Source of the DNA: a virus | Virus record (IMG/VR): IMGVR_UViG_3300021964_000012 | Location: 1 to 64,000 of that record | Strand: one strand, 5' to 3' | DNA: 64,000 nucleotides | Shown: one piece after another, positions 21,813 to 40,607 of the stretch | How positions within the stretch are numbered: position 1 is the stretch's first letter | Layout: each line of letters opens with the position of its first letter | Program-made: the position numbers and the translations under genes | Notes under the pieces: model-generated | Told to the model about the DNA's origin: nothing | What the model saw: only the letters and a program-made list of their open reading frames with translations | The model's database searches: none

Positions 21813-22115
21813 ATGCAAACAGATCAACTTTCCCAAAATATTAAAACAAGATTTAACCATCAACAAGCAAGGACTATTTTGCGTGAAACCTATCAGGCCA
21901 AGATGGTTTTTGCACACAATGGCGGCATGTGGCGTGCATCACCTGAACTGATTGTGTTGTGCAATTCGTGCGAAGGCACTGTTGTGCTAGAAGACATATA
22001 CAATACTCCAGTTAGTGTCGATAGCAATGAATTATGTGACTTAGCAAAACAACGCTGGCAAGAACAAATGAATGCTTGGCAAGCAGAATACAAAGAAATC
22101 TCAAAAAATCGATGA
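21813..22115 (+). CDS. hypothetical protein
   Basis: 100 aa, ATG start. Its stop overlaps the next start (ATGA at 22112-22115). Confidence 0.55.
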   Translation: MQTDQLSQNIKTRFNHQQARTILRETYQAKMVFAHNGGMWRASPELIVLCNSCEGTVVLEDIYNTPVSVDSNELCDLAKQRWQEQMNAWQAEYKEISKNR

Positions 22116-22906: not shown

Positions 22907-22916
22907 AAAAGGATAC

Positions 22917-23669
22917 ATGATAGTTGCTGGTCTCGACGAGCAAGTAGACTATTTGACATGTGCTATCACTCTGGCACGAAGTATAAAATACTGGCACAAA
23001 GATGCAAAGGTATGTTTACTTACAGATGTTGAAAACTATCAAAACAGTGTATTTGACTATGTGGTAAATTTTCCTTATGGAAATACTGGCGGCTGGACCA
23101 CAGATTGGCAAGTGTTTGATGCAAGCCCTTTCCATGAAACTGTCAAACTAGAGGCAGATATGCTGGTAAGTGGTCCAATTGATCACTGGTGGACACTGTT
23201 CAGGAACAAACCTGTCTGGATTTCCTCAGGCTGCAGAGACTTTCATGGTCAAACTGCAAAAAATCGACACTATCGCAAAATCTTTGATCAGAATAACCTT
23301 CCAGATGTTTATAATGCCATAACATATTGGAGAGTGAGCAGAGAAGCACAAAACTTTTTTTATCAGACAAGGCAAATCTTTGAACAATGGGATTCAGTAA
23401 AAACTATGATACAGGGTGCTCAAGACGAAATAGCCAGCACAGATCTAGTTTATGCTTTGGGTGCAGATGAATTTGTTACACCTGGTGTAGGTCCGCAGAT
23501 TGTTCATATGAAGTCGCACATAATTGGAACCAGTGCAGAAGATTGGAGTAAAGAACTAGTTTGGGAAGTGATTGATGGAGTGTTACGTATCAACGGACAT
23601 AATCAAACTGGAATCGTACACTATAATCAAAAACACCTAGCCAAAAATTTTGGAGACTATTATGGATGA
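22917..23669 (+). CDS. putative glycosyltransferase-like protein, paralogue of 22112-22906
   Basis: Start moved to ATG 22917 (AAAGGA SD, no overlap). MIVAGLDEQVDYLTCAITLARSIKYWHKDAKVCLLTD aligns with the N-terminus of the upstream gene. The DxD position reads EADMLV. Confidence 0.45.
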   Translation: MIVAGLDEQVDYLTCAITLARSIKYWHKDAKVCLLTDVENYQNSVFDYVVNFPYGNTGGWTTDWQVFDASPFHETVKLEADMLVSGPIDHWWTLFRNKPVWISSGCRDFHGQTAKNRHYRKIFDQNNLPDVYNAITYWRVSREAQNFFYQTRQIFEQWDSVKTMIQGAQDEIASTDLVYALGADEFVTPGVGPQIVHMKSHIIGTSAEDWSKELVWEVIDGVLRINGHNQTGIVHYNQKHLAKNFGDYYG

Positions 23670-24036: not shown

Positions 24037-24966
24037 ATGAACAAAACTGTTGACGTGGCTGATATAGATTGTGTATATTTAAGCTACGATGAACCCAAGA
24101 AAGAAGAATTTTGGGTAAAAATCCGCAACATAGTGCCATGGGCAAAACGTGTTGATGGAGTAAAAGGTTCAGACGCCGCACACAAAGCTGCCGCTGAAGC
24201 CAGTGATACAGAACGTTTTATATTGATTGATGGTGACAATCTACCTGAAGAAAATTTTTTCAACGAAACCTTAGAATACAAAACTGAACAATATGAACAT
24301 GCCGTATATAGATGGCGTGCCCGTAACGATATCAATGGATTGATGTACGGCAATGGTGGTATAAGCTCGTGGACAAAAACATTTGTACGTAACATGCGTA
24401 CACACGAAGCCTCAGAAGGTGCAGATGACACTGACGTTGAGTTTTGCTTTGATGATCTATATTGGCCAATGTACAACTGTTACTCAACTACATACCCCGG
24501 AGAAAGTGCAAAGCATGCTTTTCGTGCGGGCTTTAGAGAAGGCGTAAAAATGTGCCTTGATAGAGGTACAAAGCCTAGTGCAAGTGAATTCAAAGAACGT
24601 GTACACAACAGGAACTTGGACCATTTAACCATCTGGCACAATGTAGGCGCAGATACTGAACATGGATTGTGGGCAATTGCAGGATCAAGGTTAGGCACAT
24701 GGAAAACCATGCTCAGTGATTGGGATTACAAACAGGTGCAAGACTTTGCTTTACTTGAAGATATGTGGAATGATGTTAAACATATACCTCCTGGAGAACT
24801 TGTTACTATAAAGGCAGAAGATCTAGCAAGACAATTAGCACTTCCTATGAACATATATACTCCGATACAAAGTAAGTTTTTTAAACACCATTATAGAAGT
24901 AATTGGCACAACAAAACAATTATGACTCGCGAAATAGACATAATTAAACAACAAGAGGGTTGGTAA
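24037..24966 (+). CDS. putative GT-A-like glycosyltransferase (DGD motif)
   Basis: 309 aa. DCVYLSYDEPKKEEFW...RVDGVKGSDAAHKAAAEASDTERFILIDGDNLP aligns with the C-terminal half of the 662-aa protein at 44248-46236 (LDIVFISNDESNAEKNW...RVDGVKGRAEAYRASLEASNTDW). Confidence 0.4.
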   Translation: MNKTVDVADIDCVYLSYDEPKKEEFWVKIRNIVPWAKRVDGVKGSDAAHKAAAEASDTERFILIDGDNLPEENFFNETLEYKTEQYEHAVYRWRARNDINGLMYGNGGISSWTKTFVRNMRTHEASEGADDTDVEFCFDDLYWPMYNCYSTTYPGESAKHAFRAGFREGVKMCLDRGTKPSASEFKERVHNRNLDHLTIWHNVGADTEHGLWAIAGSRLGTWKTMLSDWDYKQVQDFALLEDMWNDVKHIPPGELVTIKAEDLARQLALPMNIYTPIQSKFFKHHYRSNWHNKTIMTREIDIIKQQEGW

Positions 24967-25503: not shown

Positions 25504-26510
25504 ATATTATTGTAAAAAGCAGTAATAACCATATCTGGAATCTTAATGAAATATATTCTAATATTGATACTGCTATGCTTCATAATCAAGATATTACTCT
25601 CGACTTAAACTACGAAGGTCCTGATATTTCGAATACTGAGCTCGAAAATTATATTATGCACTGTGCAAATTTACACAATTATAATCCATCAAGGATATCG
25701 GTACAAACTTCAAATCAAGTACAGAAACATGACGTTTTTAAAATTGATATACACTCGCCAATTTATATAAAAGAAATTGCAAAAGAATACGAACACACTT
25801 ATGACAAAGATATTATTAAACATTTTGGTATGTTTATAGGAAGAAGTAATGCACCAAGACTTGACTTAGCAAGTTACTTATATTATGCTGGATTTCGTGA
25901 TCAAAGTTATCTTACATACCATTATAATGTGCAAAGCCAATATCATAGAGAAAATATAGGTATTGAAGAATTGTTAATTGACTTTAACCACACAGATTTA
26001 GATATTCCGGCACTTTTTTTAAACAAATGTCCAATTGCAAGTGCTATAGTTGAGCCACAAACAAACATAGATTTATGTCATTGTCAACAGTTATTACAAA
26101 ACGATAATAAAAATTTCTTACAAAATTATCATAACTTTTTTGTTGAAATTGTTTGCGAAACCTGTTATACTGGTAATACGTTTTTCCCAACAGAAAAAAC
26201 TTGGCGACCAATATTACTTAAAACTCCTTTTATTATACAAGGACCACAATGGTACTTGCACAGATTAAAAGATATGGGTTTTAAAACATTCAGTGATTGG
26301 TGGGACGAAGGTTACAGCGAAGATCCTGCTTCTTGGCAACCTACAGAAATTAAAAAAGTTATAAGTTCTATTAGTGAACTAGGGATTACTAACTTACAAG
26401 AAATGTATAGAGAAATGCAGCCAGTACTTGAACATAATAAAAAAAGGTTTTTAGAACTTACGAGCAACGATTTTGACATATTTAAAAATGACAAATATCA
26501 AACAAAATAA
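25500..26510 (+). CDS. putative glycosyltransferase, TEK-motif family (fucosyltransferase-like C-terminal motif)
   Basis: 336 aa. C-terminal block VEIVCET...PTEKTWRPILLKTPFIIQGPQWYLHRLKDMGFKTFSDWWDEGYSED is shared with three other ORFs in the window and is reminiscent of the GT10-type ..E(N)S...(Y)xTEK motif. Confidence 0.45.
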   Translation: MNIIVKSSNNHIWNLNEIYSNIDTAMLHNQDITLDLNYEGPDISNTELENYIMHCANLHNYNPSRISVQTSNQVQKHDVFKIDIHSPIYIKEIAKEYEHTYDKDIIKHFGMFIGRSNAPRLDLASYLYYAGFRDQSYLTYHYNVQSQYHRENIGIEELLIDFNHTDLDIPALFLNKCPIASAIVEPQTNIDLCHCQQLLQNDNKNFLQNYHNFFVEIVCETCYTGNTFFPTEKTWRPILLKTPFIIQGPQWYLHRLKDMGFKTFSDWWDEGYSEDPASWQPTEIKKVISSISELGITNLQEMYREMQPVLEHNKKRFLELTSNDFDIFKNDKYQTK

Positions 26511-27927
26511 AGGTGATGGTGTTGATGAGAACTTCAAAAGTGATTTCTTATCAGATGCAGAACGTGCTGAACAAAAGTTAAATACTGTATCACCAAGTTT
26601 TTGTTTAGCTAAATGGAAGCAACTTAGTTTGCATTTAACAACTGGTATGAATAATAGTTGTTATCATCCTCCATTGCATAGGGCAGATGCAAACGCAATC
26701 AGAGACAATCCTAGTGCATTGCATAACACAGAACACAAAAAACAACAACGTAAATTGATGTTGGAAGGTACGCGACCCACTGAGTGTAGTTACTGCTGGG
26801 CTATGGAAGACAATGGTAAACTCAGTGACAGACACTATCGTTCAGGTGAGCCTTGGGCAATTAAAGACTTTGAAACTATAAAAAATTCTTCATGGGATCA
26901 AGATATTACTCCTAGTTATGTTGAAGTAGATTTTAATAGTGCATGTAATCTCAGTTGCAGTTATTGTTCTCCCCAGTATAGTTCAACATGGATGAAAGAA
27001 ACACAACGTGAAGGTGCATGGCCAACATCAACACCACACAATGATCCTAGTCACTTTGTAGGAGAACGCAGGCCCATACCTGCAAGAGAACACAATCCAT
27101 ATGTAGAAGCATTTTGGGAGTGGTGGCCTACACTTTATCCAGAACTTGAACATTTTAGAATGACCGGTGGCGAACCAATGATGGATAAAAACACATATCG
27201 TGTTTTTGATTACGTGCTACAAAATCCTTCGCAAAAGTTACATTTAAGTACAACTTCAAATTTCAGTGTAGAAGAAAAACTTTGGCAACGTTACAAAGCA
27301 TATGTCACTATGCTTTGCGAAAGTCCAGGTACAGTTGAACATTTTATGCAATATGTGAGTCTGGACGGTATGTTTAAGCCAGCAGAATACATGCGTCATG
27401 GTTTAGATTTTAATTTGCTCTGGGATCGAGTAAATCAATTTTTGAACGACATACCAGAACGCAGTAGTATCACTTTTATAATTACTATGAATAATCTTAG
27501 TGTAACCACACTGAAGAATCTGTTTGCTGGTATACTTGGACTTAGGCAAATATACAGTAACACCTATCAACGTGTATGGTTTGATACACCTGTACTACGT
27601 ACACCTACCTGGCAGAGTTTGCAGTTATTGCCAGAAAGTTATGTATATGAACTTGAGCTTTGCAAGACGTGGATGAATGATCAATTAGAAAAACCTGAAA
27701 CACGTTTTAAAGGATTTAAAGATTACGAAGTTAACAGGCTAGACAGAGACATTGCTTGGATGCGTAACGGACAACATCTCGATCCTGTCTATATTAACAA
27801 AAACAAAGCAGACTTCTACAGGTTTTTTAACGAACACGATAGACGTAGAGGCACAGACTTTTTAAAAACTTTTCCTGAAATGTCATCTTGGTGGGAAGAG
27901 TGCAAATATTTGGCTAGTAAACAATAA
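26488..27927 (+). CDS. radical SAM enzyme with N-terminal SPASM/twitch-like Cys motif (long subtype)
   Basis: The track start 26473 is TTG; ATG 26488 chosen. CNLSCSYCSP (CxxxCxxC), GGEPMM. N-terminal FCLAKW..(14)..SCYHP ... CSYCWAMEDNG. Paralogous to 29812-31170 along the whole length. Confidence 0.8.
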   Translation: MTNIKQNKGDGVDENFKSDFLSDAERAEQKLNTVSPSFCLAKWKQLSLHLTTGMNNSCYHPPLHRADANAIRDNPSALHNTEHKKQQRKLMLEGTRPTECSYCWAMEDNGKLSDRHYRSGEPWAIKDFETIKNSSWDQDITPSYVEVDFNSACNLSCSYCSPQYSSTWMKETQREGAWPTSTPHNDPSHFVGERRPIPAREHNPYVEAFWEWWPTLYPELEHFRMTGGEPMMDKNTYRVFDYVLQNPSQKLHLSTTSNFSVEEKLWQRYKAYVTMLCESPGTVEHFMQYVSLDGMFKPAEYMRHGLDFNLLWDRVNQFLNDIPERSSITFIITMNNLSVTTLKNLFAGILGLRQIYSNTYQRVWFDTPVLRTPTWQSLQLLPESYVYELELCKTWMNDQLEKPETRFKGFKDYEVNRLDRDIAWMRNGQHLDPVYINKNKADFYRFFNEHDRRRGTDFLKTFPEMSSWWEECKYLASKQ

Positions 27928-27942
27928 GCGATAACTACATTT

Positions 27943-28776
27943 ATGAAAGTTATAGTTACAGGATCCGGTGGTTTCTTAGGAAGCCACACAGTAAAATATT
28001 TCCGCAATAAAGGTCACGAAGTCACTGCATTTACACAAGATGTACGTCGTAACCTGCCTTACGAAAACTTTGATTGTTTGTGTCATTTTGCTGCCTATGT
28101 TGGTGGACGTAAAGGTATTGATAATAATAAATGGCTTATTACTGAAAATATAGAAATTGATAGAATTACATTTAGATGGGCTGAAGAATGGTGTAAGAAA
28201 ATAATCTATCCTAGCAGTTGTGCGGCCTATCCTCTGCACCTACAAGAAATGCCTGACACACCGATGCAAGAAGAACAGTTTGGAAGTAGTAAAACTTTTG
28301 ACATATACGGGCTTGCTAAAGTTGTTGCAGAAAGTATGCTTAAAACATTACACATTCCTGTACACGTCATGCGACCTTTTAGCATATACGGCCCTGGACA
28401 AGACTTGGATTATCCGATACCTGCAATAATACAAAGAGCAAAGAAAGGTGAGTGTAGTGTGTGGGGAAGTGGTACACAAACAAGAGACTGGGTTTACATA
28501 GATGATGCACTGAAAATATTTGAATACCTACTACACAAACAAGAATCTACTACAGTAAATATTGCAACAGGCAAAGCAATAACATTCAAAGAAATAGCAG
28601 AAACAGTATATAAGTTAATGCATGGTGTAAAAATTCCTGTGAAGACACAAACAGACCAACCCGAAGGTGCTGGACATAGGGTTGGTAGCACTGAGCGTAT
28701 GAGCAGTCTTGGGCTGAGATGTGATATACCAATTGAATACGGAATTAGAAAGATGATCGAATGGTCACAAGAATAG
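27943..28776 (+). CDS. NAD-dependent sugar epimerase/dehydratase (extended SDR)
   Basis: 277 aa. Rossmann motif VTGSGGFLGSH, catalytic SS...YGLAK (YxxxK). Confidence 0.8.
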   Translation: MKVIVTGSGGFLGSHTVKYFRNKGHEVTAFTQDVRRNLPYENFDCLCHFAAYVGGRKGIDNNKWLITENIEIDRITFRWAEEWCKKIIYPSSCAAYPLHLQEMPDTPMQEEQFGSSKTFDIYGLAKVVAESMLKTLHIPVHVMRPFSIYGPGQDLDYPIPAIIQRAKKGECSVWGSGTQTRDWVYIDDALKIFEYLLHKQESTTVNIATGKAITFKEIAETVYKLMHGVKIPVKTQTDQPEGAGHRVGSTERMSSLGLRCDIPIEYGIRKMIEWSQE

Positions 28777-29819
28777 GCACACACTTTCCTTTAGATTGGG
28801 CTTATGGAAAAGATGAATTATATATCTTTGATAAAACGCACAGTCAAATTGATAAAAAGTTTCCAAATCAGCGTAACTTGTTAATTAATACCACATGGTT
28901 TGGCAGTCAATTTGGTGATAATAACGACTGCTGGACAGAAGCGATGAATTTAGAAGGTAAATTTACTAATCTATTTTTATTATGTATTATTGATCCAATA
29001 TATCTTTTTGAAGAAGATCTAGAAAAAATAATAAACAAGTACAATATTAAAAACATATATCGAATCGGAATGTTCGAAGGTGAAGCAATGGAATGGAACT
29101 TTCATGCACTTATTGCCAACGACCGCATGCCTGAATATAAGGAAGAAGAGGTATTAATGCAAAGTGCAGACTTTGCGTATATGCTATATCAAAGAAAACC
29201 AAGACTGCATCGAGTTGAAATTACCAATATTTTAAGAGAACAACCGCATCTGTTAGAACGTGGTATTGTTACATTAGGTGGAGTAGCAAAAGATGGAACA
29301 GATTGGCACCAAGGTCTTGAAGTTATTCCAATGACAATAGATGATCTACCGTCGGCATACAAGCAGACAGACGGAGATGATGACGATCATGCTGGAGTTC
29401 CAAATGATCTTGTAACAATTGGACGCCTTGATTTGTGGCAAAACCATTTTTTAAATGTGGTAAGCGAAACAGAATTTGACGAATGGAAACCTGTGTTTAT
29501 GACAGAAAAAATTTGGAAGCCAATGATAGGACTACGTCCGTTTCATGTGCATGGTAATCCAAGATCTTATCAATGGTTAAGAGACAGAGGATTTCGAACA
29601 TTTAATCATTATTGGAAACATTTGCCGGTTGAGACAATTACAGAAGAATACGGTCAACATAATGCACTAATGGATGTAATAAATTATCTAGTGGATATGC
29701 CAAGATTAGAAATAGAACAAATGTACCTTGACATGTTACCAGATTTGCGTTATAATAAAGCTCGCCTTAAAGAATTTAGTAAAGAACAAAAATATAAAAT
29801 GGAGAACTTGTTTGCCTAA
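28761..29819 (+). CDS. putative glycosyltransferase, TEK-motif family
   Basis: 352 aa. VVSETEFDEWKPVFMTEKIWKPMIGLRPFHVHGNPRSYQWLRDRGFRTFNHYW is paralogous to 25500-26510, 42313-43200 and 43191-44249. Confidence 0.45.
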   Translation: MVTRIGTHFPLDWAYGKDELYIFDKTHSQIDKKFPNQRNLLINTTWFGSQFGDNNDCWTEAMNLEGKFTNLFLLCIIDPIYLFEEDLEKIINKYNIKNIYRIGMFEGEAMEWNFHALIANDRMPEYKEEEVLMQSADFAYMLYQRKPRLHRVEITNILREQPHLLERGIVTLGGVAKDGTDWHQGLEVIPMTIDDLPSAYKQTDGDDDDHAGVPNDLVTIGRLDLWQNHFLNVVSETEFDEWKPVFMTEKIWKPMIGLRPFHVHGNPRSYQWLRDRGFRTFNHYWKHLPVETITEEYGQHNALMDVINYLVDMPRLEIEQMYLDMLPDLRYNKARLKEFSKEQKYKMENLFA

Positions 29820-31170
29820 GCAACCAAACGAGACTGATCTAGCATATAAAGAACGTGTACTTAATCCACTTAGTGATAGCATGTGTGGAGCCAAATGGTA
29901 TAATGCAACTATATGGTTAGGCTCAGGCATGACAACTAGTTGCCATCATCCACTTCCACATCATGTAAGTGTAGAGAATGTTATTGCTAATCCTAAGGCA
30001 CTACACAACACGCCACATAAAAAACATGAGCGTTTGCAGATGCAATATGGCGAGCGTCCAAAGGGTTGCGAGTATTGTTGGAAAGTAGAAGACATAGGCA
30101 GAGACAACATCAGTGATAGGGTTTACAAGAGTGTAATCTACGATGATGAAGCACTCAAACATGCCCATGAAACCGACCACAATGAGGACATAGACTTAAA
30201 AACACTAGAAATAGCATTTGATCGTACTTGTAACCTAGCATGCAGTTATTGTAATCCTGCTTTTAGCACCACATGGGTAAAAGATATAAAGAAGAACGGT
30301 GCATATCAAGGCCTCGTAAGCGATGGCCGCAATCATTTTACACATCCACATGATAGCTCGCAGTTGTATAGGTTCAACGAAACTAATCCTTACATCGAAG
30401 CGTTCTTTAAATGGTGGGAATCAGATCTGCACAGAACTTTACAAGAATTACGCATAACAGGTGGAGAACCAATGATGAGCGGACACCTGTGGAAACTATT
30501 AGACTGGTTCAAAGAAAACAAAGGCGCAAGTAAAACACGCATTGCTATCAACAGTAATCTACAGTGTAGCACAGATGATATAGAAAAACTACTTGATCGG
30601 GCTGATAGTGCTCCGCTGGACATTTATACAAGTAACGAAAGCATAGTAGATCAAGCAGAATACATACGTGATGGACTTGACTGGAACACATGGCAGACAA
30701 ACTTTGAAATGTTGGCCTCAAGCAATAAGTTACGTGGTTTGCACAACATGTGTACAATTAATGCATTGTGTTTGGAGTCATTGCCAGAATTTTTAGATTA
30801 TTTACTGAATATAAAAGCAAAATATGGCAGAGACTTTCCTAGTTTTACACTTAATATACTTCGATTTCCTAGTTTTCAAAGTGCATTAGCATTACCTGAC
30901 CAAATACGCTCGGCATACAAAGATCGATTACAACATTGGTTTGATCTCAATGTAGACAACAAACTATTTCATGAACATGAACTTAATCAAACACAACGTT
31001 TATTAGATTACTTAGATGTAGTTAAAACTCCGCACAGTGAAGCATTTGAGACACCAAAACTACACAACGACTTTGTAAAATTTTATACACAGTATGATAT
31101 CAGACGTAATAAAAATTTTAATAAAGTATTTCCAAGTATGAAAGAATGGTTTAATGAGTTACAACTATAA
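29812..31170 (+). CDS. radical SAM enzyme with N-terminal SPASM/twitch-like Cys motif (long subtype)
   Basis: CNLACSYCNP, GGEPMM. N-terminal MCGAKW..(14)..SCHHP ... CEYCWKVEDIG. Start uncertain: the track start 29728 is TTG and overlaps the upstream gene by 92 nt. I prefer TTG 29812 (GGAG 7 nt upstream). ATG 29881 is the alternative. Confidence 0.75.
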   Translation: MPKQPNETDLAYKERVLNPLSDSMCGAKWYNATIWLGSGMTTSCHHPLPHHVSVENVIANPKALHNTPHKKHERLQMQYGERPKGCEYCWKVEDIGRDNISDRVYKSVIYDDEALKHAHETDHNEDIDLKTLEIAFDRTCNLACSYCNPAFSTTWVKDIKKNGAYQGLVSDGRNHFTHPHDSSQLYRFNETNPYIEAFFKWWESDLHRTLQELRITGGEPMMSGHLWKLLDWFKENKGASKTRIAINSNLQCSTDDIEKLLDRADSAPLDIYTSNESIVDQAEYIRDGLDWNTWQTNFEMLASSNKLRGLHNMCTINALCLESLPEFLDYLLNIKAKYGRDFPSFTLNILRFPSFQSALALPDQIRSAYKDRLQHWFDLNVDNKLFHEHELNQTQRLLDYLDVVKTPHSEAFETPKLHNDFVKFYTQYDIRRNKNFNKVFPSMKEWFNELQL

Positions 31171-32437
31171 CAGTAGCGATCCAATAAAAATAAAACTAAG
31201 TGACTTAGAAGAACGTGAACGTTTCTTATTAAGTGAAAGCAAGACTTTTTGCATGTATCCATGGATACACTTACATGCATATCCAACTGGTGAAGCATAT
31301 CCTTGTTGTCATGCTGAAATGGGTGTAGGACAGGTAGGCAACTGCAAAACAAATACAATGTTAGAAATTTGGAATAGCCCTGAACAAAAGAAACTACGTC
31401 AAGATATGTTAACTGAAACCAAAAATGACGCATGCGGAAGATGCTATGAACAAGAAGCATCAGGATTCTTTTCAGGTAGACAAAGTGCAAACAAGCATCA
31501 TGGACACCACATACACAGAACACAAGACACAACTGTCGAGGGTGAGTATAAAGATTTTGAAATGACCTATTGGGATATACGTTTTTCAAACTTGTGTAAT
31601 CTAAGTTGTCGGAGTTGTGGACATATATTTTCTAGTAGTTGGCATAAAGACCAGACTGCTCTTGCTGGCCCCGAATGGGCAAAAAATAACAAGGTGTTAA
31701 ACTATGCAGGACGGTTTAAAACTGATATGATGGAACAGTTAATGGAGCATCTTGACTATGTAGAACAAATATACTTTGCTGGTGGTGAACCACTGATGAT
31801 GGATGAACACTATGTGATACTTGAAGAGCTTGAACGTAGAGGCCGTTTTGATGTGCGACTCATTTACAATACAAATTTTACGCATGTTCAACTTAAAGAA
31901 AGATTGGTTTTTGATTATTGGAAAAAGTTTGACAGTGTAGCAGTTGGTGCAAGTTTGGATGCAATGGGTCCTCGTGCTGAGTACATACGTAAAGGCGCCA
32001 AATGGGACATAGTTGAACAAAACAGACATAAAATGATGGAAATATGTCCAAAGGTTGACTTTTATATTTCACCAACACTTAGTATCATGAATGCCTTGCA
32101 CATACCAGACTTTCACAGAGACTGGGTAAACAAAGGATTGCTTCAAGCACAGGATCTAAACATCAATATATTACAAGATCCTAATTACTATAGAATTGAC
32201 ATTGCACCACAAGCGTACAAAGATCAAATCGTTGATGCGTATGAGAAACATCTTGTTTGGTTACGCCCACAAGATAAACTAAACAGAGCAACTGTTGGTT
32301 TTGAAAGTGCATTACAGTATTTAAAAACAGACAACACGCACTTGTTGGAAAAATTTTGGCAAAAGACTCAACAACTTGATGGCATTCGCAATGAAAATAT
32401 TCTTGACATTATACCAGAATTGGATGCATTAAAGTGA
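31154..32437 (+). CDS. radical SAM enzyme with N-terminal SPASM/twitch-like Cys motif (short subtype)
   Basis: 427 aa. FCMYPWIHLHAYPTGEAYPCCH...LEIWNSPEQKKLRQDM...CGRCYEQE, then CNLSCRSCGH and GGEPLMM. Confidence 0.8.
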   Translation: MSYNYNSSDPIKIKLSDLEERERFLLSESKTFCMYPWIHLHAYPTGEAYPCCHAEMGVGQVGNCKTNTMLEIWNSPEQKKLRQDMLTETKNDACGRCYEQEASGFFSGRQSANKHHGHHIHRTQDTTVEGEYKDFEMTYWDIRFSNLCNLSCRSCGHIFSSSWHKDQTALAGPEWAKNNKVLNYAGRFKTDMMEQLMEHLDYVEQIYFAGGEPLMMDEHYVILEELERRGRFDVRLIYNTNFTHVQLKERLVFDYWKKFDSVAVGASLDAMGPRAEYIRKGAKWDIVEQNRHKMMEICPKVDFYISPTLSIMNALHIPDFHRDWVNKGLLQAQDLNINILQDPNYYRIDIAPQAYKDQIVDAYEKHLVWLRPQDKLNRATVGFESALQYLKTDNTHLLEKFWQKTQQLDGIRNENILDIIPELDALK

Positions 32438-33639
32438 AGTTACCACATGAAAAGTTTTGTGTGTTGCCATGGGTAAGTTTAGAAACATCACCAATTGGAA
32501 CAGTCCGACCTTGTTGTCTAGCAGAAGATGAAATAACAGACAATAACGGCAAAAAATATAGTTTGCTTAATACCGACCTAAATAAAATACACAATAGTGA
32601 TTATATGCAAACATTGCGTAAAGAGTTTTTAGATGGCATTCAACCTGAAACTTGTCGTAAATGTTGGAACGAAGAACGCTCAGGTCGTACCTCAAAACGG
32701 ATGCACACACTTAACAGATTAGAACATATTGTTACAGACACCGAATGGACTGTTGATGCAAAACCCTTGGTGTTTATAGATTTTAAACTTGGCAACATAT
32801 GTAATTTAAAATGTAGAATATGTGGATCGTGGAGCTCGAGTACGTTTGCTGCTGAAGAAGTTAAATTTGAGGGTAAAGACAGCTTTCATTATCAAATGCT
32901 TAAAGATGGAGCATGGCCAAGACGCAATCAAAAGTTTTGGACAGAGATTGATAAACTAATGGAGCAAGTACAATACTTGGAGTTTACTGGTGGCGAACCA
33001 TTTATGATACAAGAACATTTTGATTTACTACAAAGAATGGTTGATCAAGGCATTGCATCAAATGTAGAAATACATTACAATACAAACGGAACACACTTTC
33101 CAGACCATGCAGAATCAATTTGGAAAAATTTTAAATTGGTTGAGATTGCTTTTAGCATAGACGATGTTGGTCCACGTTTTGAATATCAACGTGCAAATGC
33201 CGTATGGGATGAAGTAAATGCAAACATGGATAGATTTGAGGCTCTGCGTGATCGCAACACAAACATACAATTGCAAGTGTGTTCAACTGTGAATATTTTT
33301 AACGTTATGTACTTGGAAGGCTTGGCAAATTGGATTGACCAACGTAATTTTGATTTTATATACTGGAACATGCTACACGAAGCACGGCATCACAGTGTTG
33401 GTACTCTGCCTGACCGTGCAAAAGAGCTTGTATCTAATAAATTAATGTCTGCTAAGGTATCTAATTTTCATATGAAAGAGTTTGTCAAGATAGTAGATTT
33501 TATAGAAGCAGGTATCAGTTTAGATGGCACAGAACTACGTAGAAGTGTGCAACAGGTAGACCGTCGAAGATCACAGGATTTGCGTATACACCATCCAGAA
33601 CTCGCAGATGCAATAGATTACGAAGGACCAAACACATGA
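32434..33639 (+). CDS. radical SAM enzyme with N-terminal SPASM/twitch-like Cys motif (short subtype)
   Basis: 401 aa, GTG start in a GTGA overlap. FCVLPWVSLETSPIGTVRPCC...CRKCWNEE, then CNLKCRICGS and GGEPFM. Confidence 0.8.
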   Translation: MKLPHEKFCVLPWVSLETSPIGTVRPCCLAEDEITDNNGKKYSLLNTDLNKIHNSDYMQTLRKEFLDGIQPETCRKCWNEERSGRTSKRMHTLNRLEHIVTDTEWTVDAKPLVFIDFKLGNICNLKCRICGSWSSSTFAAEEVKFEGKDSFHYQMLKDGAWPRRNQKFWTEIDKLMEQVQYLEFTGGEPFMIQEHFDLLQRMVDQGIASNVEIHYNTNGTHFPDHAESIWKNFKLVEIAFSIDDVGPRFEYQRANAVWDEVNANMDRFEALRDRNTNIQLQVCSTVNIFNVMYLEGLANWIDQRNFDFIYWNMLHEARHHSVGTLPDRAKELVSNKLMSAKVSNFHMKEFVKIVDFIEAGISLDGTELRRSVQQVDRRRSQDLRIHHPELADAIDYEGPNT

Positions 33640-34202
33640 TATTAGTTGTCATAGCACTAGAAGAAGAATTACCAGGATCGTTACCAAGCGGATATAAAAA
33701 ATTAATCACAGGCGTAGGGAAAGTAAATGCAAGTATCGCACTTACTGCTGAGTTATGCCATAACAATCATTATACAAAAATTATAAACTACGGTTCAGCA
33801 GGCGGCAGTAAAGAAATTAAAGGCGAACTTGTAGGAGTAAGTGCAGTTATTGAACGTGATATGGATTGCACTCCTCTTGGCTTGCCATTGTATGTTTCAC
33901 CTGGCGATGAAGAACAAATGATAGTGTGTCAGACCAAACACGACAGTCTGTTTGTGTGCGGAACAGGAGACAGTTTTAGCGTGCCGCACATTAACTATCA
34001 AATATGCGAAATGGAAGCATACGCACTCGCAAAAGTTTGTCATAAATTCAATATTCCTTTTGACTGTTACAAGTACATTTCAGACAGTGACGCAGACGGT
34101 GAAGATCAAGGCCGTGAATGGGAAGCAAATGTTCACAAGGGTGCAGAACTGTTTAGAAGAACAATACTCACTGAACAAGAACAGATAGCATTTGAATGGT
34201 AG
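33636..34202 (+). CDS. mtnN: 5'-methylthioadenosine/S-adenosylhomocysteine (5'-deoxyadenosine) nucleosidase, PNP_UDP_1 family
   Basis: 188 aa. TGVGKVNASIALT, IINYGSAGG, GTGDSF and EMEAYALAKVCHKFNIPFDCYKYISD align with E. coli MtnN/Pfs blocks (GIGKVAAA, IINTGSAGG, SGDAF, VEMEATAIAHVCHNFNVPF..ISD). Shorter than the E. coli enzyme. Confidence 0.8.
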   Translation: MILVVIALEEELPGSLPSGYKKLITGVGKVNASIALTAELCHNNHYTKIINYGSAGGSKEIKGELVGVSAVIERDMDCTPLGLPLYVSPGDEEQMIVCQTKHDSLFVCGTGDSFSVPHINYQICEMEAYALAKVCHKFNIPFDCYKYISDSDADGEDQGREWEANVHKGAELFRRTILTEQEQIAFEW

Positions 34203-35506
34203 ACAGGCCTGAACAAAAGCCTGAAACCTTATGCATGGCTCCGTGGACACACACCTATCTATCTCCGCAGACCGAACGCAGAATGTGTTGTGCTAGTCGT
34301 GAATCAGCACAGAGCTTTAAACAGTATATTGATACTGGATCGGGCACAGGAACATACAATCCGCAAACACTAGAAGAACATTGGAACGGCGATCATATGC
34401 GTAGTGTAAGAAGGCGTATGATGGCTGGTGAAAAACTAAGCGAGTGCGAAGTTTGTACAGATAAACTTCTTAATACTGATGTGTATAGAACTTACTTTTG
34501 GCACTTGTTTCAACACCGTTATGATGAGCTATGGACCAGTACCGACGACACTGGTTGGACCTCAATGAAGCCAATCAGTTGGGACTATAGATTTTCAAAC
34601 TTGTGTAACTTTAAATGTCGTACCTGTGGTGATATGCTTAGTTCAAGTTGGGAAACAGAACAACGTAAACACAACATGGTTAATTTAGACAACCCAAAAA
34701 ACAACTGGATGCGGCCAGAGGTTCGTAAAGAAATAAGCAAATTTCAGGATACACAAATTGAAAAAGAGTTTTCAGATGCAGTTGAAGAACATAGAATTGA
34801 AGAAATCTATTGGGTAGGTGGCGAACCACTGATGTATGAACAACACTGGCGATACATGAAACGCATAGTCGAACTTGGCGATGGGCCTGGATTGTATGCA
34901 CGTTATAATAGCAATCTTAGTAGAGTGAATTATAAAGGTCAAAATCTCTATAAAGATATACTTGCTAATATACGTGATTGGCAGATATGTGCCAGTATTG
35001 ATGGCACAGGTGCTATTGGTGAATATATAAGAACTGGACTAAACTATGATCAATTTGTAGATAATTTTAAACAAGGTTGTGATATCGCAACGCACAGACG
35101 GCAAATGCGTTTAGACTTTACTCTTACACTACCTGGATTGTTTGAAGTTGTACACATGCAACAATTAGCCGATAGATTAGGTGTTGACATCCTTGCTAAA
35201 GTTATTTTTACATTTACGCCAGATATTATTATGTCACCACTTGCATTGCCTCGTAAATTATTAGATCGCATGGTCAACCAACTAATTAACAATAATGTAT
35301 TAGGAACTGCATTGCAAGACGTGCTTGTCCAACTTAAAAATAGACCAACGATGGAAGAACAGTTTCCTGATTACATACAAGGTATGCAAGAAGGAAAAAG
35401 GCGTGTACTCAAATTAGAAGAGATTAGAAATGATAAGTTTACTATGAAAGATATACTCAGCAAAGATCAAGAAGTGTTAGATTGGTGGAATAGCATTGAT
35501 GCTTGA
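34196..35506 (+). CDS. radical SAM enzyme with N-terminal SPASM/twitch-like Cys motif (short subtype)
   Basis: 436 aa. LCMAPWTHTYLSPQTERRMCC...CEVCTDK, then CNFKCRTCGD and GGEPLM. Confidence 0.8.
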   Translation: MVDRPEQKPETLCMAPWTHTYLSPQTERRMCCASRESAQSFKQYIDTGSGTGTYNPQTLEEHWNGDHMRSVRRRMMAGEKLSECEVCTDKLLNTDVYRTYFWHLFQHRYDELWTSTDDTGWTSMKPISWDYRFSNLCNFKCRTCGDMLSSSWETEQRKHNMVNLDNPKNNWMRPEVRKEISKFQDTQIEKEFSDAVEEHRIEEIYWVGGEPLMYEQHWRYMKRIVELGDGPGLYARYNSNLSRVNYKGQNLYKDILANIRDWQICASIDGTGAIGEYIRTGLNYDQFVDNFKQGCDIATHRRQMRLDFTLTLPGLFEVVHMQQLADRLGVDILAKVIFTFTPDIIMSPLALPRKLLDRMVNQLINNNVLGTALQDVLVQLKNRPTMEEQFPDYIQGMQEGKRRVLKLEEIRNDKFTMKDILSKDQEVLDWWNSIDA

Positions 35507-36554
35507 TCGGGTTGAAATGCAATTGCGTGGGCCAAATGGTTTGTTGCCTGTATTCTTTGATGTGTATGATAATAGTTTAAGTCGTAAATGGTTAACTGCA
35601 TTTAATAATTTACTGGATAATAAATTACATCTTGAAAAAAACTATTGCTTTTTTGGATTTCCTGACAATGAACGTAACTTAGACTTTTTAGCCAGTGAAA
35701 TCAATAGAACTATTGCAGGGATAAATGGCAGCAACATTGACTATGTTATAAAAGATTATTTTTCTGCTGAAAATATGGTTGAAAAAAATTGGAGTGAACT
35801 TAACCAAGCAGTGAAAATTGATATAAATCATACAAAATTCAACCAGTTGCATTTATACTTTGAGGAAACACAAGGTGTGAGTGGTGCAATGAGCGAACAT
35901 TATACTAATGCTGATGCAGAAACACGTTGGTATATCAGGCAACTTAATTTATTATGTCATGAAGCAGAATGTCTTATAATAAGTTTAGGAAGAAAAGATG
36001 CGGCTCCGGAATGGATACGTCCTAGTAATGTTATGTGTTGGTTGCATGCTCCAAGATTTGTACTAGATGCTGAAGATTATAATCAATTTGGAGTTGACAC
36101 AATAGCAAGAGATCACGGTGGTGTATACGTTGGTGTTAACAAAGCAGTAGGAAAACATCATTATGAGGTTTTTAGCGACGAAGGCAGAGACAGTAGAATT
36201 GACGAGCTTACAACCACCACACTTAAACCACAAACAGAAGCTGCAGGTGATTTTGACATAGAATGGGGTAAAGCAACTTCTGACCAAAGTTTTATGCAAA
36301 CAAAACTAAATGATTTTAGAACATGGCTCAAGGCAAACAATTTTGATCCAGATGACCCTAGTTTGACAATAGGTCATCCAAAAATTGGACAGGTTGATTT
36401 AAAACACAGTTTTGGCACAGAGGATTTTTTGCAAGTGTTAGCAAAATTATCACAATATCTTGATGTATACAGTATCAAAACCAGTAAAAGTTATTGCGAA
36501 TACGATTACACATGGCATCAAAGTAAAGAACTACAAATACCTTTAATTGATTGA
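35499..36554 (+). CDS. hypothetical protein (island member)
   Basis: The track start 35496 is TTG. ATG 35499 gives an 8-nt overlap with the upstream stop. 351 aa, no motif recognised. Confidence 0.6.
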   Translation: MLDRVEMQLRGPNGLLPVFFDVYDNSLSRKWLTAFNNLLDNKLHLEKNYCFFGFPDNERNLDFLASEINRTIAGINGSNIDYVIKDYFSAENMVEKNWSELNQAVKIDINHTKFNQLHLYFEETQGVSGAMSEHYTNADAETRWYIRQLNLLCHEAECLIISLGRKDAAPEWIRPSNVMCWLHAPRFVLDAEDYNQFGVDTIARDHGGVYVGVNKAVGKHHYEVFSDEGRDSRIDELTTTTLKPQTEAAGDFDIEWGKATSDQSFMQTKLNDFRTWLKANNFDPDDPSLTIGHPKIGQVDLKHSFGTEDFLQVLAKLSQYLDVYSIKTSKSYCEYDYTWHQSKELQIPLID

Positions 36555-36579: not shown

Positions 36580-36682
36580 GATAAAATGGTTCAAGAATCT
36601 TATCAGCAAAATAAAACTAGAAATAAGATATCGTAAAAAATTAAAAGAACTGAGGAAAAGGGATCCTTTTATATACAAATGA
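36578..36682 (+). CDS. small basic ORF (34 aa), hypothetical
   Basis: MIKWFKNLISKIKLEIRYRKKLKELRKRDPFIYK. AAGGAG lies 7 nt upstream, and the stop overlaps the metK start (ATGA). Below the ORF-track size cutoff. It conflicts with use of the overlapping promoter candidate. Confidence 0.3.
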   Translation: MIKWFKNLISKIKLEIRYRKKLKELRKRDPFIYK

Positions 36683-37779
36683 GTTATATTTTCACATCAG
36701 AGTCAGTGAGCAAAGGCCATCCTGACAAAATAGCAGACCAAATATCAGATGCATTAGTCGATGCTGGTTTGCAAGCCGGTGACGAAACAACACGTGTTGC
36801 AGTTGAAACAATGGTAACAACAAATTATGTTGTACTAGCAGGAGAAGTAAAAAACTTCAACGTCACTGATGAACAAGTTGAGCAGATTATTAGAGACAAA
36901 GTTAAAGAGATCGGCTATGAGCAAGAAGGCTTTCATTGGGATAAACTTAAAGTTGATAACAAAACAATCAACAACCAGTTGCACTCTCAAAGTTCAGACA
37001 TTGCTCTAGGTACAGATGATTTTGGTGCAGGTGATCAAGGTATTATGTTTGGATATGCTTGCAATGACAATGAAGCAATGATGCCAGCACCTATCTATTA
37101 TTCACACGAACTACTAAAAGAACTAAATGACATGCGAGCAGATGGTTATCATTTTTTGCTACCAGATGCAAAGAGTCAAGTTAGTGTTGAATATGAAGGC
37201 GGAAAAGTAAAACGTATTGATCAAGTTGTTATAAGTCATCAACACAAAGAAGGTTTTCAACATAGTGTTATAGCACCTTTCAAAACCGCAGTAGAAAAAG
37301 TACTAGGCAATTTAATAGATGACAATACAGTATTTCATTTTAATCCTACTGGCAAATTTGTTATTGGTGGACCCGATGGTGACACTGGACTTACTGGTCG
37401 TAAAATTATTGTTGATACCTATGGTGGTTTTGCTCCTCACGGTGGTGGGGCATTTAGTGGAAAAGATCCTACTAAGGTAGACCGTAGTGCGGCCTATATG
37501 GCTCGTTGGTTGGCAAAGAATGTAGTTGCAGACGATATGGCTGACTGGTGTCAAATACAATTAAGTTATGCTATTGGCGTAAAAGAACCTACCAGCATCT
37601 ATGTAGATTCAAATGGACACAACAGAAGTATACAAAAGTTTATCAGAGACAATATTGATCTTACGCCAAAAGGTATAATTGATAGATTTGATCTTTTTAA
37701 ATTTTATGAATACAGTGCAAATTGCACATACGGACACTTTGGCAACAAAGATGTTCCTTGGGAAAAGGTAGGCTGGTAA
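36679..37779 (+). CDS. metK: S-adenosylmethionine synthetase
   Basis: 366 aa. FTSESVSKGHPDKIADQISDALVDA, GAGDQGIMFGYA and GGGAFSGKDPTKVDRSAAYMARW are canonical MetK motifs. Confidence 0.95.
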   Translation: MSYIFTSESVSKGHPDKIADQISDALVDAGLQAGDETTRVAVETMVTTNYVVLAGEVKNFNVTDEQVEQIIRDKVKEIGYEQEGFHWDKLKVDNKTINNQLHSQSSDIALGTDDFGAGDQGIMFGYACNDNEAMMPAPIYYSHELLKELNDMRADGYHFLLPDAKSQVSVEYEGGKVKRIDQVVISHQHKEGFQHSVIAPFKTAVEKVLGNLIDDNTVFHFNPTGKFVIGGPDGDTGLTGRKIIVDTYGGFAPHGGGAFSGKDPTKVDRSAAYMARWLAKNVVADDMADWCQIQLSYAIGVKEPTSIYVDSNGHNRSIQKFIRDNIDLTPKGIIDRFDLFKFYEYSANCTYGHFGNKDVPWEKVGW

Positions 37780-37889: not shown

Positions 37890-39395
37890 ATGAGAATACT
37901 AGGAGTTAGTGCAGGATTCCACGATGCCGCTCTTACTGTGGTACACAATCACAGAATACTGTTTGCAGGTCATGCTGAACGATATAGCAAAAAGAAAAAC
38001 GATCCTACTATTCCTCAAAGTCTTCAAGAACACGTTCTTAAATATGGACCTTTTGACATGATAGTCTACTATGAAAAGCCATATCTAAGACAACTGCGTA
38101 AAATTAAAAGTGGCGAAAATTGGGGAGGTGCTTGGCGTACACGTACCGAACTCGTACGTACAATTCCTTATATAATGGAAAACACCAAAGCAGAAATAAG
38201 CAGTGTTGGACATCATCTATCGCATGCGGCCGCAGGCTTTCAAACATCACCATTCGATGATGCAACAGTAGTTGTTATTGATGCAATAGGTGAGTCGGAT
38301 ACTATAAGCATATACCACGCCTACTACAATGGTGCATGTTTAGCAGGTGAACATGCTAAGGCAAATTACAAACTATTATACAAACAAACCTATCCACACA
38401 GTATTGGTATGTTCTACAGTGCAGTTACACAACGTTGTGGACTGAAGCCAATGGACGAAGAGTACATCACAATGGGCATGGCCGCATATGGGGATGCCGA
38501 CAAGGCATACAAAACATTAAAACGTGCAACTGTACAATTCGCAGATATTCCACTGTTTAAAGAAAACCTACACATAGGTATTGATGATGTTGAGTTTGCA
38601 CCTGATGTTACTGCTGAAGACATAGCTGCCGCAGGACAACAGTTATGCGAAGAAATGGTTATGGCTGTAATGCGTAGGGCAAAGGCCATTGGCACTAGTA
38701 AAAATCTAGTGTACATGGGAGGAGTTGCACTTAACTGTGTGATCAATCGTCGATTGGGTGAACTGTTTAACAAAATATGGATAATGCCCAACCCAGGAGA
38801 TGCAGGAAGCAGTTTGGGAGCCGCGGCCTACACATATGGTAGAGACATAAACTTTACAACACCATACTTGGGCTCAAATATAGCAGGTGAATATCCAGTG
38901 GATGAACTGTTAAAAGAATTAGAAACAAATCAAATTGTTGGAGTCGCAAATGGACGTGCAGAATTTGGTCCAAGAGCGTTAGGTAACAGAAGTTTACTAG
39001 CCGATCCGCGTGGACGAAATATCAAGGATCGAGTGAATGAGATAAAACGTAGACAAAAGTTTAGACCGTTTGCTCCTGTGATACTTGAAGAACATGTGCA
39101 TGACTATTTTGTAATGCCTCTTTATCAACCCACAAGTCGCTACATGCAGGTAGTAGCACGTTGCACAAAGCCAGATAAGTTTCCTGCTATTATACACGTA
39201 GATGGCACATCAAGAGTACAAACAGTTCCTGACAATGATAGTGGTATAAGACGGTTGTTGAGTGCGTGGTATAAAAAAACCGGTTGTCCTATGTTGTTGA
39301 ATACCAGTTTAAACATAAGAGGCGAGCCAATGGTTGATGATAGATTTGATGCTAATCGCTTTCAAAAAGAGTATGGAGTAACTGTATGCAGTTAG
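37890..39395 (+). CDS. carbamoyltransferase, NodU/CmcH/TobZ family
   Basis: 501 aa. MRILGVSAGFHDAALTVVHNHRILFAGHAERYSKKKND matches the family N-terminus (ILG.s...HD.aa.lv..g.i..a..EER.sR.K.D). Confidence 0.85.
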   Translation: MRILGVSAGFHDAALTVVHNHRILFAGHAERYSKKKNDPTIPQSLQEHVLKYGPFDMIVYYEKPYLRQLRKIKSGENWGGAWRTRTELVRTIPYIMENTKAEISSVGHHLSHAAAGFQTSPFDDATVVVIDAIGESDTISIYHAYYNGACLAGEHAKANYKLLYKQTYPHSIGMFYSAVTQRCGLKPMDEEYITMGMAAYGDADKAYKTLKRATVQFADIPLFKENLHIGIDDVEFAPDVTAEDIAAAGQQLCEEMVMAVMRRAKAIGTSKNLVYMGGVALNCVINRRLGELFNKIWIMPNPGDAGSSLGAAAYTYGRDINFTTPYLGSNIAGEYPVDELLKELETNQIVGVANGRAEFGPRALGNRSLLADPRGRNIKDRVNEIKRRQKFRPFAPVILEEHVHDYFVMPLYQPTSRYMQVVARCTKPDKFPAIIHVDGTSRVQTVPDNDSGIRRLLSAWYKKTGCPMLLNTSLNIRGEPMVDDRFDANRFQKEYGVTVCS

Positions 39396-40228: not shown

Positions 40229-40539
40229 CCAAAGAAAACGATTTAAGACAACGTGTAATAGAATCACTTCAAACAGTATTTGATCCTGAGATGCCCAGTA
40301 TAAGTGTTTACGATTTAGGTTTAATCTATAAGATAGAGATCAAAGGTGACTGGGTTGGCATAGAACATACACTAACTAGTATGGCATGTCCTTTTGCAGA
40401 TCAAATTTGTGCCGATATAGAACATGCAGTTATTAGTACACCTGGCGTGCGTGCTATTGATAGACAATTGGTATTTGAACCTATTTTTACAATAGAAATG
40501 GTTCCTGAAGAAACCAAACTAATAATGGGCTGGTACTAA
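40225..40539 (+). CDS. DUF59 / SufT-PaaD-like Fe-S cluster assembly protein
   Basis: Start moved to ATG 40225 (ATGA overlap). LRQRVIESLQTVFDPEMPSISVYDLGLIYKIEI...TLTSMACPFAD fits the DUF59 pattern, including the conserved Cys. Confidence 0.7.
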   Translation: MTKENDLRQRVIESLQTVFDPEMPSISVYDLGLIYKIEIKGDWVGIEHTLTSMACPFADQICADIEHAVISTPGVRAIDRQLVFEPIFTIEMVPEETKLIMGWY

Positions 40540-40607
40540 TGGATACAAGAATGATTTTTGCCTTACTTGCATTGCCGTTATTATCATACATTGGTTACTA
40601 TGTTGGT

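Follow-up and report, generated by a model that had tools for sequence, protein, structure and literature searches.

A number of radical S-adenosylmethionine (SAM) enzymes with auxiliary iron-sulphur clusters have been described, and in those closest to the genes considered here the auxiliary domain follows the barrel. BtrN (2-deoxy-scyllo-inosamine dehydrogenase) and BlsE (cytosylglucuronate decarboxylase) combine a partial TIM-barrel core with a C-terminal, one-cluster, hairpin-plus-helix twitch domain, and belong to a sugar or aminocyclitol tailoring context of aminotransferases, amidinotransferases and carbamoyltransferases. In enzymes of the anSME, CteB and SkfB type (SFLD subgroup 17, Megacluster-1-1) a SPASM domain with seven or eight cysteines and two auxiliary clusters is likewise C-terminal. 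The twitch is a truncated SPASM motif, in which a beta-hairpin and helix, packed against the barrel, bind one auxiliary cluster (Grell, Goldman and Drennan 2015, as cited in PMC5332604 and PMC9477430), and RadicalSAM.org records some Megacluster-1-1 members with conserved cysteines N-terminal to the barrel and states that structures are lacking (PMC9477430). Among phages, multi-copy radical SAM genes near fibre or glycosyltransferase genes and paaD-like genes are found in cassettes of marine T4-like phages, where they are listed only as auxiliary metabolic genes, with neither architecture nor function (Nishimura 2017, PMC5332604; Zaragoza-Solas 2020, PMC7029224). The present analysis concerns a window of 64,000 nucleotides (positions 1 to 64,000 of the IMG/VR virus record IMGVR_UViG_3300021964_000012, one strand) in which five paralogous radical SAM open reading frames (ORFs) lie in a similar setting. 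Their N-terminal-twitch architecture is already catalogued as the NCBI family NF033640; of interest is a five-enzyme array that a clade of jumbo phages has kept among sugar-tailoring genes.

The window is phage DNA from an aquatic, uncultured jumbo myovirus of the Rak2/GAP32/Atu_ph07 type. Rak2-like jumbo myoviruses, among them Atu_ph07, GAP32 and CBB, have baseplate wedge proteins that share 33-35% identity with the one encoded here (1522-4929), and theirs is a lineage distinct from the marine T4-like phages and from KVP40 and phi-pp2. Megablast of a 10-kb region against INPHARED gave no match and hence no near-identical cultured phage, so that the phage is taken to be uncultured. Relatives of the third radical SAM gene (ORF3) were present at 97 IMG/VR loci, with 57-93% identity and on contigs of up to 344 kb, and 80 of these loci were fetched and are the basis of all counts of related loci given below.

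Membership and architecture of the five paralogues

The initial annotation had recognised five paralogous radical SAM genes, and these were recovered at the following positions, all on the plus strand and with 21-32% mutual identity (aa, amino acids):

26488..27927 (+), rSAM-1 (ORF1), 479 aa, subtype A; NF033640 at 299 bits, full length
29812..31170 (+), rSAM-2 (ORF2), 452 aa, subtype A; NF033640 at 297 bits
31154..32437 (+), rSAM-3 (ORF3), 427 aa, subtype B; NF033640 at 405 bits
32434..33639 (+), rSAM-4 (ORF4), 401 aa, subtype B; NF033640 at 342 bits
34196..35506 (+), rSAM-5 (ORF5), 436 aa, subtype B; NF033640 at 283 bits

Judged by hidden Markov model (HMM), all five are members of NF033640 ("twitch domain-containing radical SAM protein", N_Twi_rSAM), for which the cutoff is 170 bits. 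Because every ORF scores 283-405 bits against this one full-length model, chance is excluded; the alignments run from model positions 1-2 to 388-398 of 398, and there is no family-level difference between the five and NF033640. The Pfam SPASM model PF13186 exceeded its gathering score in ORF3 (44.3 bits, 2e-11, residues 33-98), ORF4 (24.7 bits, residues 9-78) and ORF5 (23.0 bits, residues 13-88), and in these three of the five it precedes both Radical_SAM (residues 143-290, 119-277 and 132-273 respectively) and Fer4_12, which begin from about residue 120-145. Radical_SAM itself (PF04055) passed its gathering score of 29.5 only in ORF4, at 42 bits, the other four scoring 19-28 bits. The suggestion that the N-terminal cysteine block is SPASM- or twitch-like is thus borne out by PF13186 in three ORFs and by the end-to-end family match in all five. 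The further proposal of a permuted architecture is likewise supported, with a qualification: the twitch does lie N-terminal to the barrel, the reverse of its position in BtrN, MoaA and SkfB, but as this layout already defines a curated family it is no new architecture. Nor did the array fall into a well-characterised family with an assigned reaction, since literature searches on NF033640, on N-terminal SPASM and on N-terminal twitch, together with searches of the PDB, turned up no characterised member, structure, paper or reaction; a literature search on jumbo phages with radical SAM enzymes and MetK likewise turned up no paper.

An alignment of the five proteins with MAFFT showed an invariant N-terminal block (C39, W43, C58, C100 and C103 in ORF1 numbering) followed by the invariant radical SAM columns C153, C157 and C160 (CX3CX2C) and G227-G228-E229-P230, so that the element order common to all five is CX12-13GX4C ... 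CX2C, then CX3CX2C, then GGEP. The motifs quoted earlier for these genes were all located (FCMYPWIHLHAYPTGEAYPCCH, FCVLPWVSLETSPIGTVRPCC, CGRCYEQE, CRKCWNEE, CSYCWAME and CNLSCRSCG), as was the LEIWNS...LR spacer in ORF3. In that protein the twitch domain occupies residues 33-97 (nt 31250-31444) and CX3CX2C residues 148-155 (nt 31595-31618). The first cysteine pair reproduces the auxiliary-cluster signature CX9-15GX4C that is shared, like PF13186 and a similar core fold, with anSME, CteB and SkfB; it takes the form CX12GX4C in ORF3 and CX13GX4C in ORF1, and a threonine replaces the glycine in ORF5. What had been read as an N-terminal "CC" pair survives as a single position, the first cysteine being invariant across the family and the other varying between H, C and Y. 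Among about 104 representatives of the family with a single domain, essentially every one keeps the four twitch cysteines, the glycine of CX12-13GX4C, CX3CX2C and GGEP. A division into two subtypes agrees with the identities, ORF1 and ORF2 being 31.6% identical (E 1e-69, BLASTP) and ORF3, ORF4 and ORF5 23-28% identical to one another, with 21-25% across the subtypes. Each of the five orthogroups also has its own additional conserved cysteine, among them C277 and C472 in rSAM-1, C320 in rSAM-2, C298 in rSAM-3, C283 in rSAM-4 and C265 in rSAM-5.

A full SPASM domain has seven or eight cysteines, two auxiliary clusters and a C-terminal position, whereas the five ORFs have four conserved cysteines in an N-terminal position, from which we infer that the block represents a one-cluster twitch domain and not a two-cluster SPASM domain. 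In keeping with this the SPASM model TIGR04085 scored only 17.5 bits on ORF3, below its cutoff of 27, and PF13186 matches all the same because it covers the first half-motif that the two domains share. The BlsE model TIGR04466 gave 21 bits against a cutoff of 400, in ORF4 only, and there was no BtrN, BlsE or DesII equivalog membership; the anSME models gave 14.5 bits (TIGR03942, cutoff 349) and 11.3 bits (NF010321, cutoff 441), the viperin models NF038283 and TIGR04278 18-37 bits against 180, and the NCBIfam radical SAM models other than NF033640 (among them those for MoaA, viperin, anSME, BlsE, Tes and peptide maturases) all lay far below their cutoffs.

An AlphaFold2 (AF2) model of ORF3 built from a 26-sequence alignment reached a mean predicted local distance difference test (pLDDT) score of 83 and a predicted template modelling (pTM) score of 0.83, the latter suggesting a compact body. 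N-terminal to the barrel it has a beta-hairpin at residues 39-49 (strands E39-42 and E47-49) and helices at 69-102; an alternating strand and helix barrel starts at residue 139 and the C-terminal region, 353-426, is helical. Compared with the PDB by Foldseek, only the core aligned (about 234-260 columns, query-normalised template modelling score, TMq, about 0.38). The best fold was BlsE (7vob, E 2e-5, 15% identity), the twitch of BlsE following the barrel and the predicted twitch of ORF3 preceding it, and GDGT-MAS came second; CteB, viperin, SkfB, anSME, SuiB and EpeE were also among the neighbours, as was DesII at E 3e-3, again over the core only. A search of PDB sequences with ORF3 (phmmer) found no match, so that no solved structure has the N-terminal-twitch domain order. 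Among the predicted viral structures of BFVD, many radical SAM proteins from tailed phages that are uncultured gave full-length matches (TMq 0.65-0.88), and the "MoaA/nifB/pqqE family" proteins of KVP40 and phi-pp2 matched nearly the whole of the ORF3 model at TMq 0.54-0.60.

These results bear on an alternative in which the N-terminal cysteines form a structural zinc ribbon or knuckle, or in which the substrates are lipids or acyl groups (as for Tes and GDGT-MAS) and the nearby sugar genes are coincidental. Zinc binding is conceivable for four cysteines spaced CX17-18C ... CX2C, GDGT-MAS ranks second among the folds, the Tes model matches weakly, and some bacterial homologues adjoin acyl carrier protein (ACP), ketosynthase, acyltransferase or phosphate butyryltransferase genes. 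However, the block gives a full-length match to the Pfam SPASM iron-sulphur model, one that exceeds the gathering score in three paralogues, and reproduces CX9-15GX4C; scores for Tes lie at 13-20 bits, the cutoff being 450, and lipid and ACP genes are absent from the phage island. Such a reading seems improbable.

Conservation of the array and the wider family

When an HMM of the five ORFs was applied to the related loci, the same five orthogroups were found in the same order wherever the contig was complete, and some loci hold six or seven copies of the radical SAM gene. The rSAM-1 orthogroup occurs in all of them. In nearly every locus rSAM-2, rSAM-3 and rSAM-4 lie side by side, and variable slots of 0-5.6 kb separate rSAM-1 from rSAM-2 and rSAM-4 from rSAM-5. 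In relatives the former slot contains GDP-mannose 4,6-dehydratase (6e-71), GHMP kinase and epimerases of the short-chain dehydrogenase/reductase (SDR) type; other slots contain additional radical SAM genes. Orthologues are 60-70% identical (median; 69% for rSAM-1 and 64% for rSAM-2) as against the 21-32% between paralogues, and hence the five-fold paralogy is old and has been maintained, which argues for five distinct roles and against redundancy among the five ORFs. A set of recent tandem duplicates, or an island derived from the host, was rejected on the same low identity of paralogues together with the orthologue order conserved across the clade.

NF033640 is much larger than this clade. 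With sequences clustered at 50% identity, a profile of the five ORFs retrieved 5,742 clusters at E<=1e-30 and 11,952 at E<=1e-10, including many natural fusions of 800-1,466 aa in which two or three complete N_Twi_rSAM units share a polypeptide, an arrangement that suggests paralogues working together. Among phages, tblastn of ORF3 found, at about 21% identity, only Vibrio phages K566 and K567 and Ralstonia phage RsoM2USA, in all of which the neighbouring genes are annotated "hypothetical". Independent arrays were seen, with four copies in K566 and K567 (K566 149584-174747) and eight on one contig of a Bacteriovoracaceae metagenome-assembled genome (MAG), UBA6144. A scan of genome contigs with a single protein as query found no relative, and an alignment-based scan did find them.

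Bacterial homologues (31-43% identity) were found in Bacteroidota, Bacteriovoracaceae, Alphaproteobacteria, Paenibacillus and Eubacterium. Most are single copy, from which the present locus differs both in its phage origin and in its conserved array of five diverged orthogroups. A cellular origin, suggested by "bacterial" matches of 50-70% identity, was rejected. The GTDB MAG contigs concerned (for example Haliscomenobacter sp. EUL_031 ctg1 and ctg3, TMED41, TMED56, MED606 and SP228) carry the same five-gene array with phage neighbours, several of them with homologues of the genes at 24037, 22076 and 22890, and thus look like jumbo-phage DNA that was mis-binned into MAGs.

Neighbouring genes and candidate substrates

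The other genes in and around the island that contains the array are as follows (NDP, nucleoside diphosphate; MTA/SAH, methylthioadenosine/S-adenosylhomocysteine; GT8, glycosyltransferase family 8):

20855..21766 (+), fibre-like protein, Ser/Thr/Gly/Ala-rich by sequence composition; in 56/80 loci; directly 5' of the island
21813-22115 and 23650-24009, small conserved ORFs near the array and fibre genes
22076..22906 (+), conserved neighbour; in 64/80 loci
22890..23669 (+), conserved neighbour, weakly GT8 (glycogenin-type)-like; in 66/80 loci
24037..24966 (+), most conserved neighbour of the array; in 72/80 loci, median 67% identity
27943..28776 (+), NAD-dependent SDR sugar epimerase/dehydratase/reductase in the rSAM-1/rSAM-2 slot; Pfam Epimerase 2e-31, GDP_Man_Dehyd 1e-16
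28761..29819 (+), unannotated protein in the same variable slot; C-terminal 120 aa paralogous to 25500-26510
33636..34202 (+), MTA/SAH-type nucleosidase within the array; Pfam PNP_UDP_1 2e-13; NCBIfam PRK05634 9e-23 and MTA/SAH models, below cutoff
35496..36554 (+), conserved protein, 5' end overlapping the 3' end of rSAM-5; in 62/80 loci
36679..37779 (+), MetK, S-adenosylmethionine synthetase; three Pfam S-AdoMet_synt domains, 6e-58, 5e-36 and 4e-31
37890..39395 (+), NodU/CmcH-type O-carbamoyltransferase; Pfam Carbam_trans_C 1e-50, Carbam_trans_N 4e-35; NCBIfam NodU 4e-43, below cutoff
39386..40228 (+), FkbM-family methyltransferase; Pfam Methyltransf_21 4e-17; TIGR01444 88 bits, cutoff 37.7
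40174..40539 (+), SUF-associated/SufT/PaaD-like Fe-S assembly protein; Pfam FeS_assembly_P 1e-15; NCBIfam SUF_assoc 2e-25, below cutoff
41294..42325 (-), amidinotransferase, AGAT/SxtG/StrB1 family; phage-orthologue profile against the PDB
46166..47260 (-), DegT/DnrJ/EryC1-type sugar aminotransferase; Pfam 1e-53; NCBIfam PseC and WecE-like, below cutoff
47214..48257 (-), NDP-sugar 4,6-dehydratase/epimerase (SDR); Pfam Epimerase 4e-45, GDP_Man_Dehyd 2e-38; NCBIfam dTDP-glucose 4,6-dehydratase 2e-39, below cutoff

We propose, with moderate confidence, that the array encodes five non-redundant two-cluster NF033640 enzymes with which a jumbo myovirus tailors a sugar or glycan. As nucleotide-sugar genes interleave with the array, sugar nucleotides or glycan intermediates from the surrounding island are on balance the most likely substrates. 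Each enzyme would hold two [4Fe-4S] clusters, one on CX3CX2C and one in the N-terminal twitch, ligated by its four cysteines. The radical SAM cluster would cleave SAM to give a 5'-deoxyadenosyl radical, which would abstract the hydrogen atom of an unactivated C-H bond, and the auxiliary cluster would move the electron with which the reaction is completed. The result might be oxidation to a ketone (compare BtrN and anSME), dehydration or decarboxylation (compare AprD4 and BlsE), or epimerisation (compare NeoN and EpeE), in which last case the conserved cysteine peculiar to each orthogroup could be the hydrogen donor; the chemistry of BtrN, AprD4, BlsE and NeoN supplies precedents for oxidation, dehydration, decarboxylation and epimerisation. 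Substrates would be fed in by the SDR dehydratases and epimerases, the aminotransferase, the carbamoyl-, methyl- and amidinotransferases and putative glycosyltransferases, giving a heavily tailored sugar or glycan that may be carried on the virion fibres or on the surface of the infected cell. In the lineage of the window MetK would supply SAM, the nucleosidase would clear 5'-deoxyadenosine, the radical SAM by-product, and the SufT-like protein would help to load the clusters.

The position of the radical SAM island, directly 3' of the baseplate and fibre genes, supports this proposal, and recalls both the cassettes of radical SAM and glycosyltransferase genes reported from marine myophages, where they lie in host-recognition regions (PMC7029224), and a phage genome reported to have 12 radical SAM genes and paaD (PMC5332604). 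The SDR protein at 27943-28776, which has NCBIfam matches to GDP-fucose synthase, LegB and RmlB-like proteins, all below cutoff, is present in 13/80 loci, and the NodU-type carbamoyltransferase is found in 44/80. Amidinotransferases are unusual in phages. One has been reported from a cyanomyovirus (PMC12801897), and the one at 41294-42325, for which no Pfam, NCBIfam or PHROG function match was found at the thresholds used, matched L-arginine:glycine amidinotransferase (AGAT, 3.6e-26), SxtG (7e-21) and inosamine-phosphate amidinotransferase (7e-18) in the PDB.

Several considerations weigh against a sugar or glycan role. As a reaction is known for no NF033640 member, the chemistry is by analogy only. 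The bacterial contexts of the family are mixed (ACP, ketosynthase, SDR and family 2 glycosyltransferase, GT2; PIG-L with ACP and acyltransferase; PTA_PTB, the phosphate butyryltransferases; PhyH dioxygenase with an ABC transporter; GT2 alone) and thus no single substrate class applies to the family as a whole. The array is accompanied, within 10 kb, by MetK in only 11/80 relatives, by the nucleosidase in 16/80 and by the Fe-S assembly protein in 5/80, and these three are hence lineage-specific additions and not core parts. Searches of Pfam, NCBIfam, PHROG, PDB profiles and Foldseek revealed no confident glycosyltransferase among the island genes, and the four best-conserved neighbours (22076, 22890, 24037 and 35496) have no confident family or fold match. 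Finally, most characterised SPASM/twitch enzymes act on peptides rather than sugars.

The last point favours an alternative in which the five proteins are maturases of the type that acts on peptides which are ribosomally synthesised and then modified after translation (RiPPs), placing thioether, C-C, epimer or formylglycine-type marks on a phage peptide or on the adjacent fibre proteins. CteB, SkfB, SuiB, anSME and EpeE are among the structural neighbours of ORF3, NCBIfam models for WgkB, StsB and YhhB match weakly, multi-enzyme radical SAM arrays and fusions are typical of RiPP pathways, and the array adjoins fibre genes and the small conserved ORFs 21813-22115 and 23650-24009. Against these stand the scores of all peptide-maturase models, far below cutoff, and the absence from the five ORFs of a detectable RiPP recognition element (RRE) or PqqD-like domain, the lack of any peptide-recognition domain setting them apart from maturases with a C-terminal SPASM or twitch; no precursor-like short ORF rich in cysteine or glycine was seen. 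Both in the window and in relatives, the genes that interleave with the array encode nucleotide-sugar enzymes and not proteases, transporters or leader-binding proteins. Peptide maturation is accordingly judged unlikely.

Still less probable is a role in nucleotide metabolism or in hypermodification of phage DNA bases, with viperin- or QueE-like chemistry and with the carbamoyl-, amidino- and methyltransferases decorating the base. Jumbo phages often hypermodify their DNA, there are weak matches to viperin (up to 37 bits), MoaA and QueE, viperins occur among the Foldseek neighbours, and the window also contains ThyX (48238-48921) and a plain radical SAM gene with weak MoaA- or QueE-like matches (60928-61917). 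The scores are nevertheless far under the family cutoffs (180 bits for viperin), no gene for DpdA, base exchange, a hydroxymethyldeoxyuridine (hmdU) kinase or a DNA glycosyltransferase was recognised among the neighbours, and the conserved partners of the array are fibre-adjacent genes and NDP-sugar enzymes.

Returning to the proposed tailoring of a sugar or glycan, an important consideration is that the clade keeps an oxygen-sensitive set of five enzymes, to which some lineages have added a SAM synthetase, a 5'-deoxyadenosine nucleosidase and an Fe-S factor, and it follows that the product matters for infection; most plausibly it is a tailored glycan linked to host recognition. A bolder extension, which we offer only tentatively and regard as rather unlikely, is that the five orthogroups act sequentially on one scaffold to make a new sugar- or aminocyclitol-like compound, functionalised at C-H positions and bearing carbamoyl, amidino or guanidino, amino and methyl groups, for display on the fibre or the host surface. 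If so, the product would set host range or block rival phages, and with the pathway solved a family that spans more than 5,700 sequence clusters, and in which no member has been characterised, would have its first reactions. The jumbo phages that carry the array are abundant and aquatic, and five diverged members of NF033640 with a shared, interpretable context offer a practical route to new radical SAM reactions, the permuted domain order being in addition a natural experiment on the position of an auxiliary cluster relative to barrel topology.

The conserved neighbours with weaker assignments deserve separate mention. Metagenomes contain at least 8,000 relatives of the gene at 24037-24966, every one annotated "hypothetical"; no match to it was found in Pfam, NCBIfam or PHROGs, nor, by orthologue profile, in the PDB. 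In its AF2 model, with a pLDDT of only 62, a beta-strand ends in a DGD motif, and the best Foldseek matches were HddC, IspD and SunS, all at E>0.1 and not significant, which gives at most a faint hint of a nucleotide-diphospho-sugar-transferase fold; with a low pLDDT and no significant fold match it was not called a glycosyltransferase. The profile of 22890-23669 matched glycogenin weakly in the PDB (E 0.1), with an invariant E88-A-D90 aligned to the DAD of glycogenin. No match was found for 22076-22906 in Pfam, NCBIfam, PHROGs or the PDB (orthologue profile), nor for 35496-36554 in Pfam, NCBIfam, PHROGs, a PDB profile search or INPHARED. The proteins encoded at 25500-26510 and 28761-29819 (+), both in variable positions adjoining radical SAM genes, have a common C-terminal module of about 120 aa (TEKxWxP...PF...G...L...GFxTF; BLASTP 30% over 121 aa, E 4e-13), with no match in Pfam, NCBIfam, PHROGs or, by orthologue profile, the PDB.

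Other features of the window

Directly 3' of the baseplate wedge gene lies a single ORF of 4,490 aa at 4933-18405 (+), presumably encoding a giant baseplate or fibre protein of the Rak2-like phage, and after it come fibre-like ORFs at 18430-19092 and 19149-20705, the latter with a weak Peptidase_G2 IMC match and lying 5' of the fibre-like gene at 20855-21766. Scans of the window for promoters and terminators gave counts no higher than expected from shuffled sequence. Two perfect 12/12 sigma-70 consensus promoters (TTGACA-17-TATAAT) occur on the plus strand, at 29728-29756 just 5' of rSAM-2 and at 36551-36579 just 5' of MetK. At about 40.5 kb (window approximately 40500-41300) gene orientation and GC and AT skew change sign, and this switch is the border between the rightward fibre and radical SAM block and the leftward amidinotransferase, aminotransferase and dehydratase block. 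ThyX, a flavin-dependent thymidylate synthase (-; Pfam Thy1 6e-41), sits at the edge of the sugar island. The sixth radical SAM gene of the window, at 60928-61917 (-), encodes 329 aa without the N-terminal twitch block; its product has weak MoaA, viperin and QueE-like matches only and scores 20 bits against NF033640. The TTG start listed for it overlaps a tRNA-Thr gene by 15 nt, and thus the true start is probably further downstream. Three tRNA genes, all on the minus strand, were found in this part of the window: Thr-TGT at 61903-61978, Trp-CCA at 63184-63257 and Arg-ACG at 63264-63340.

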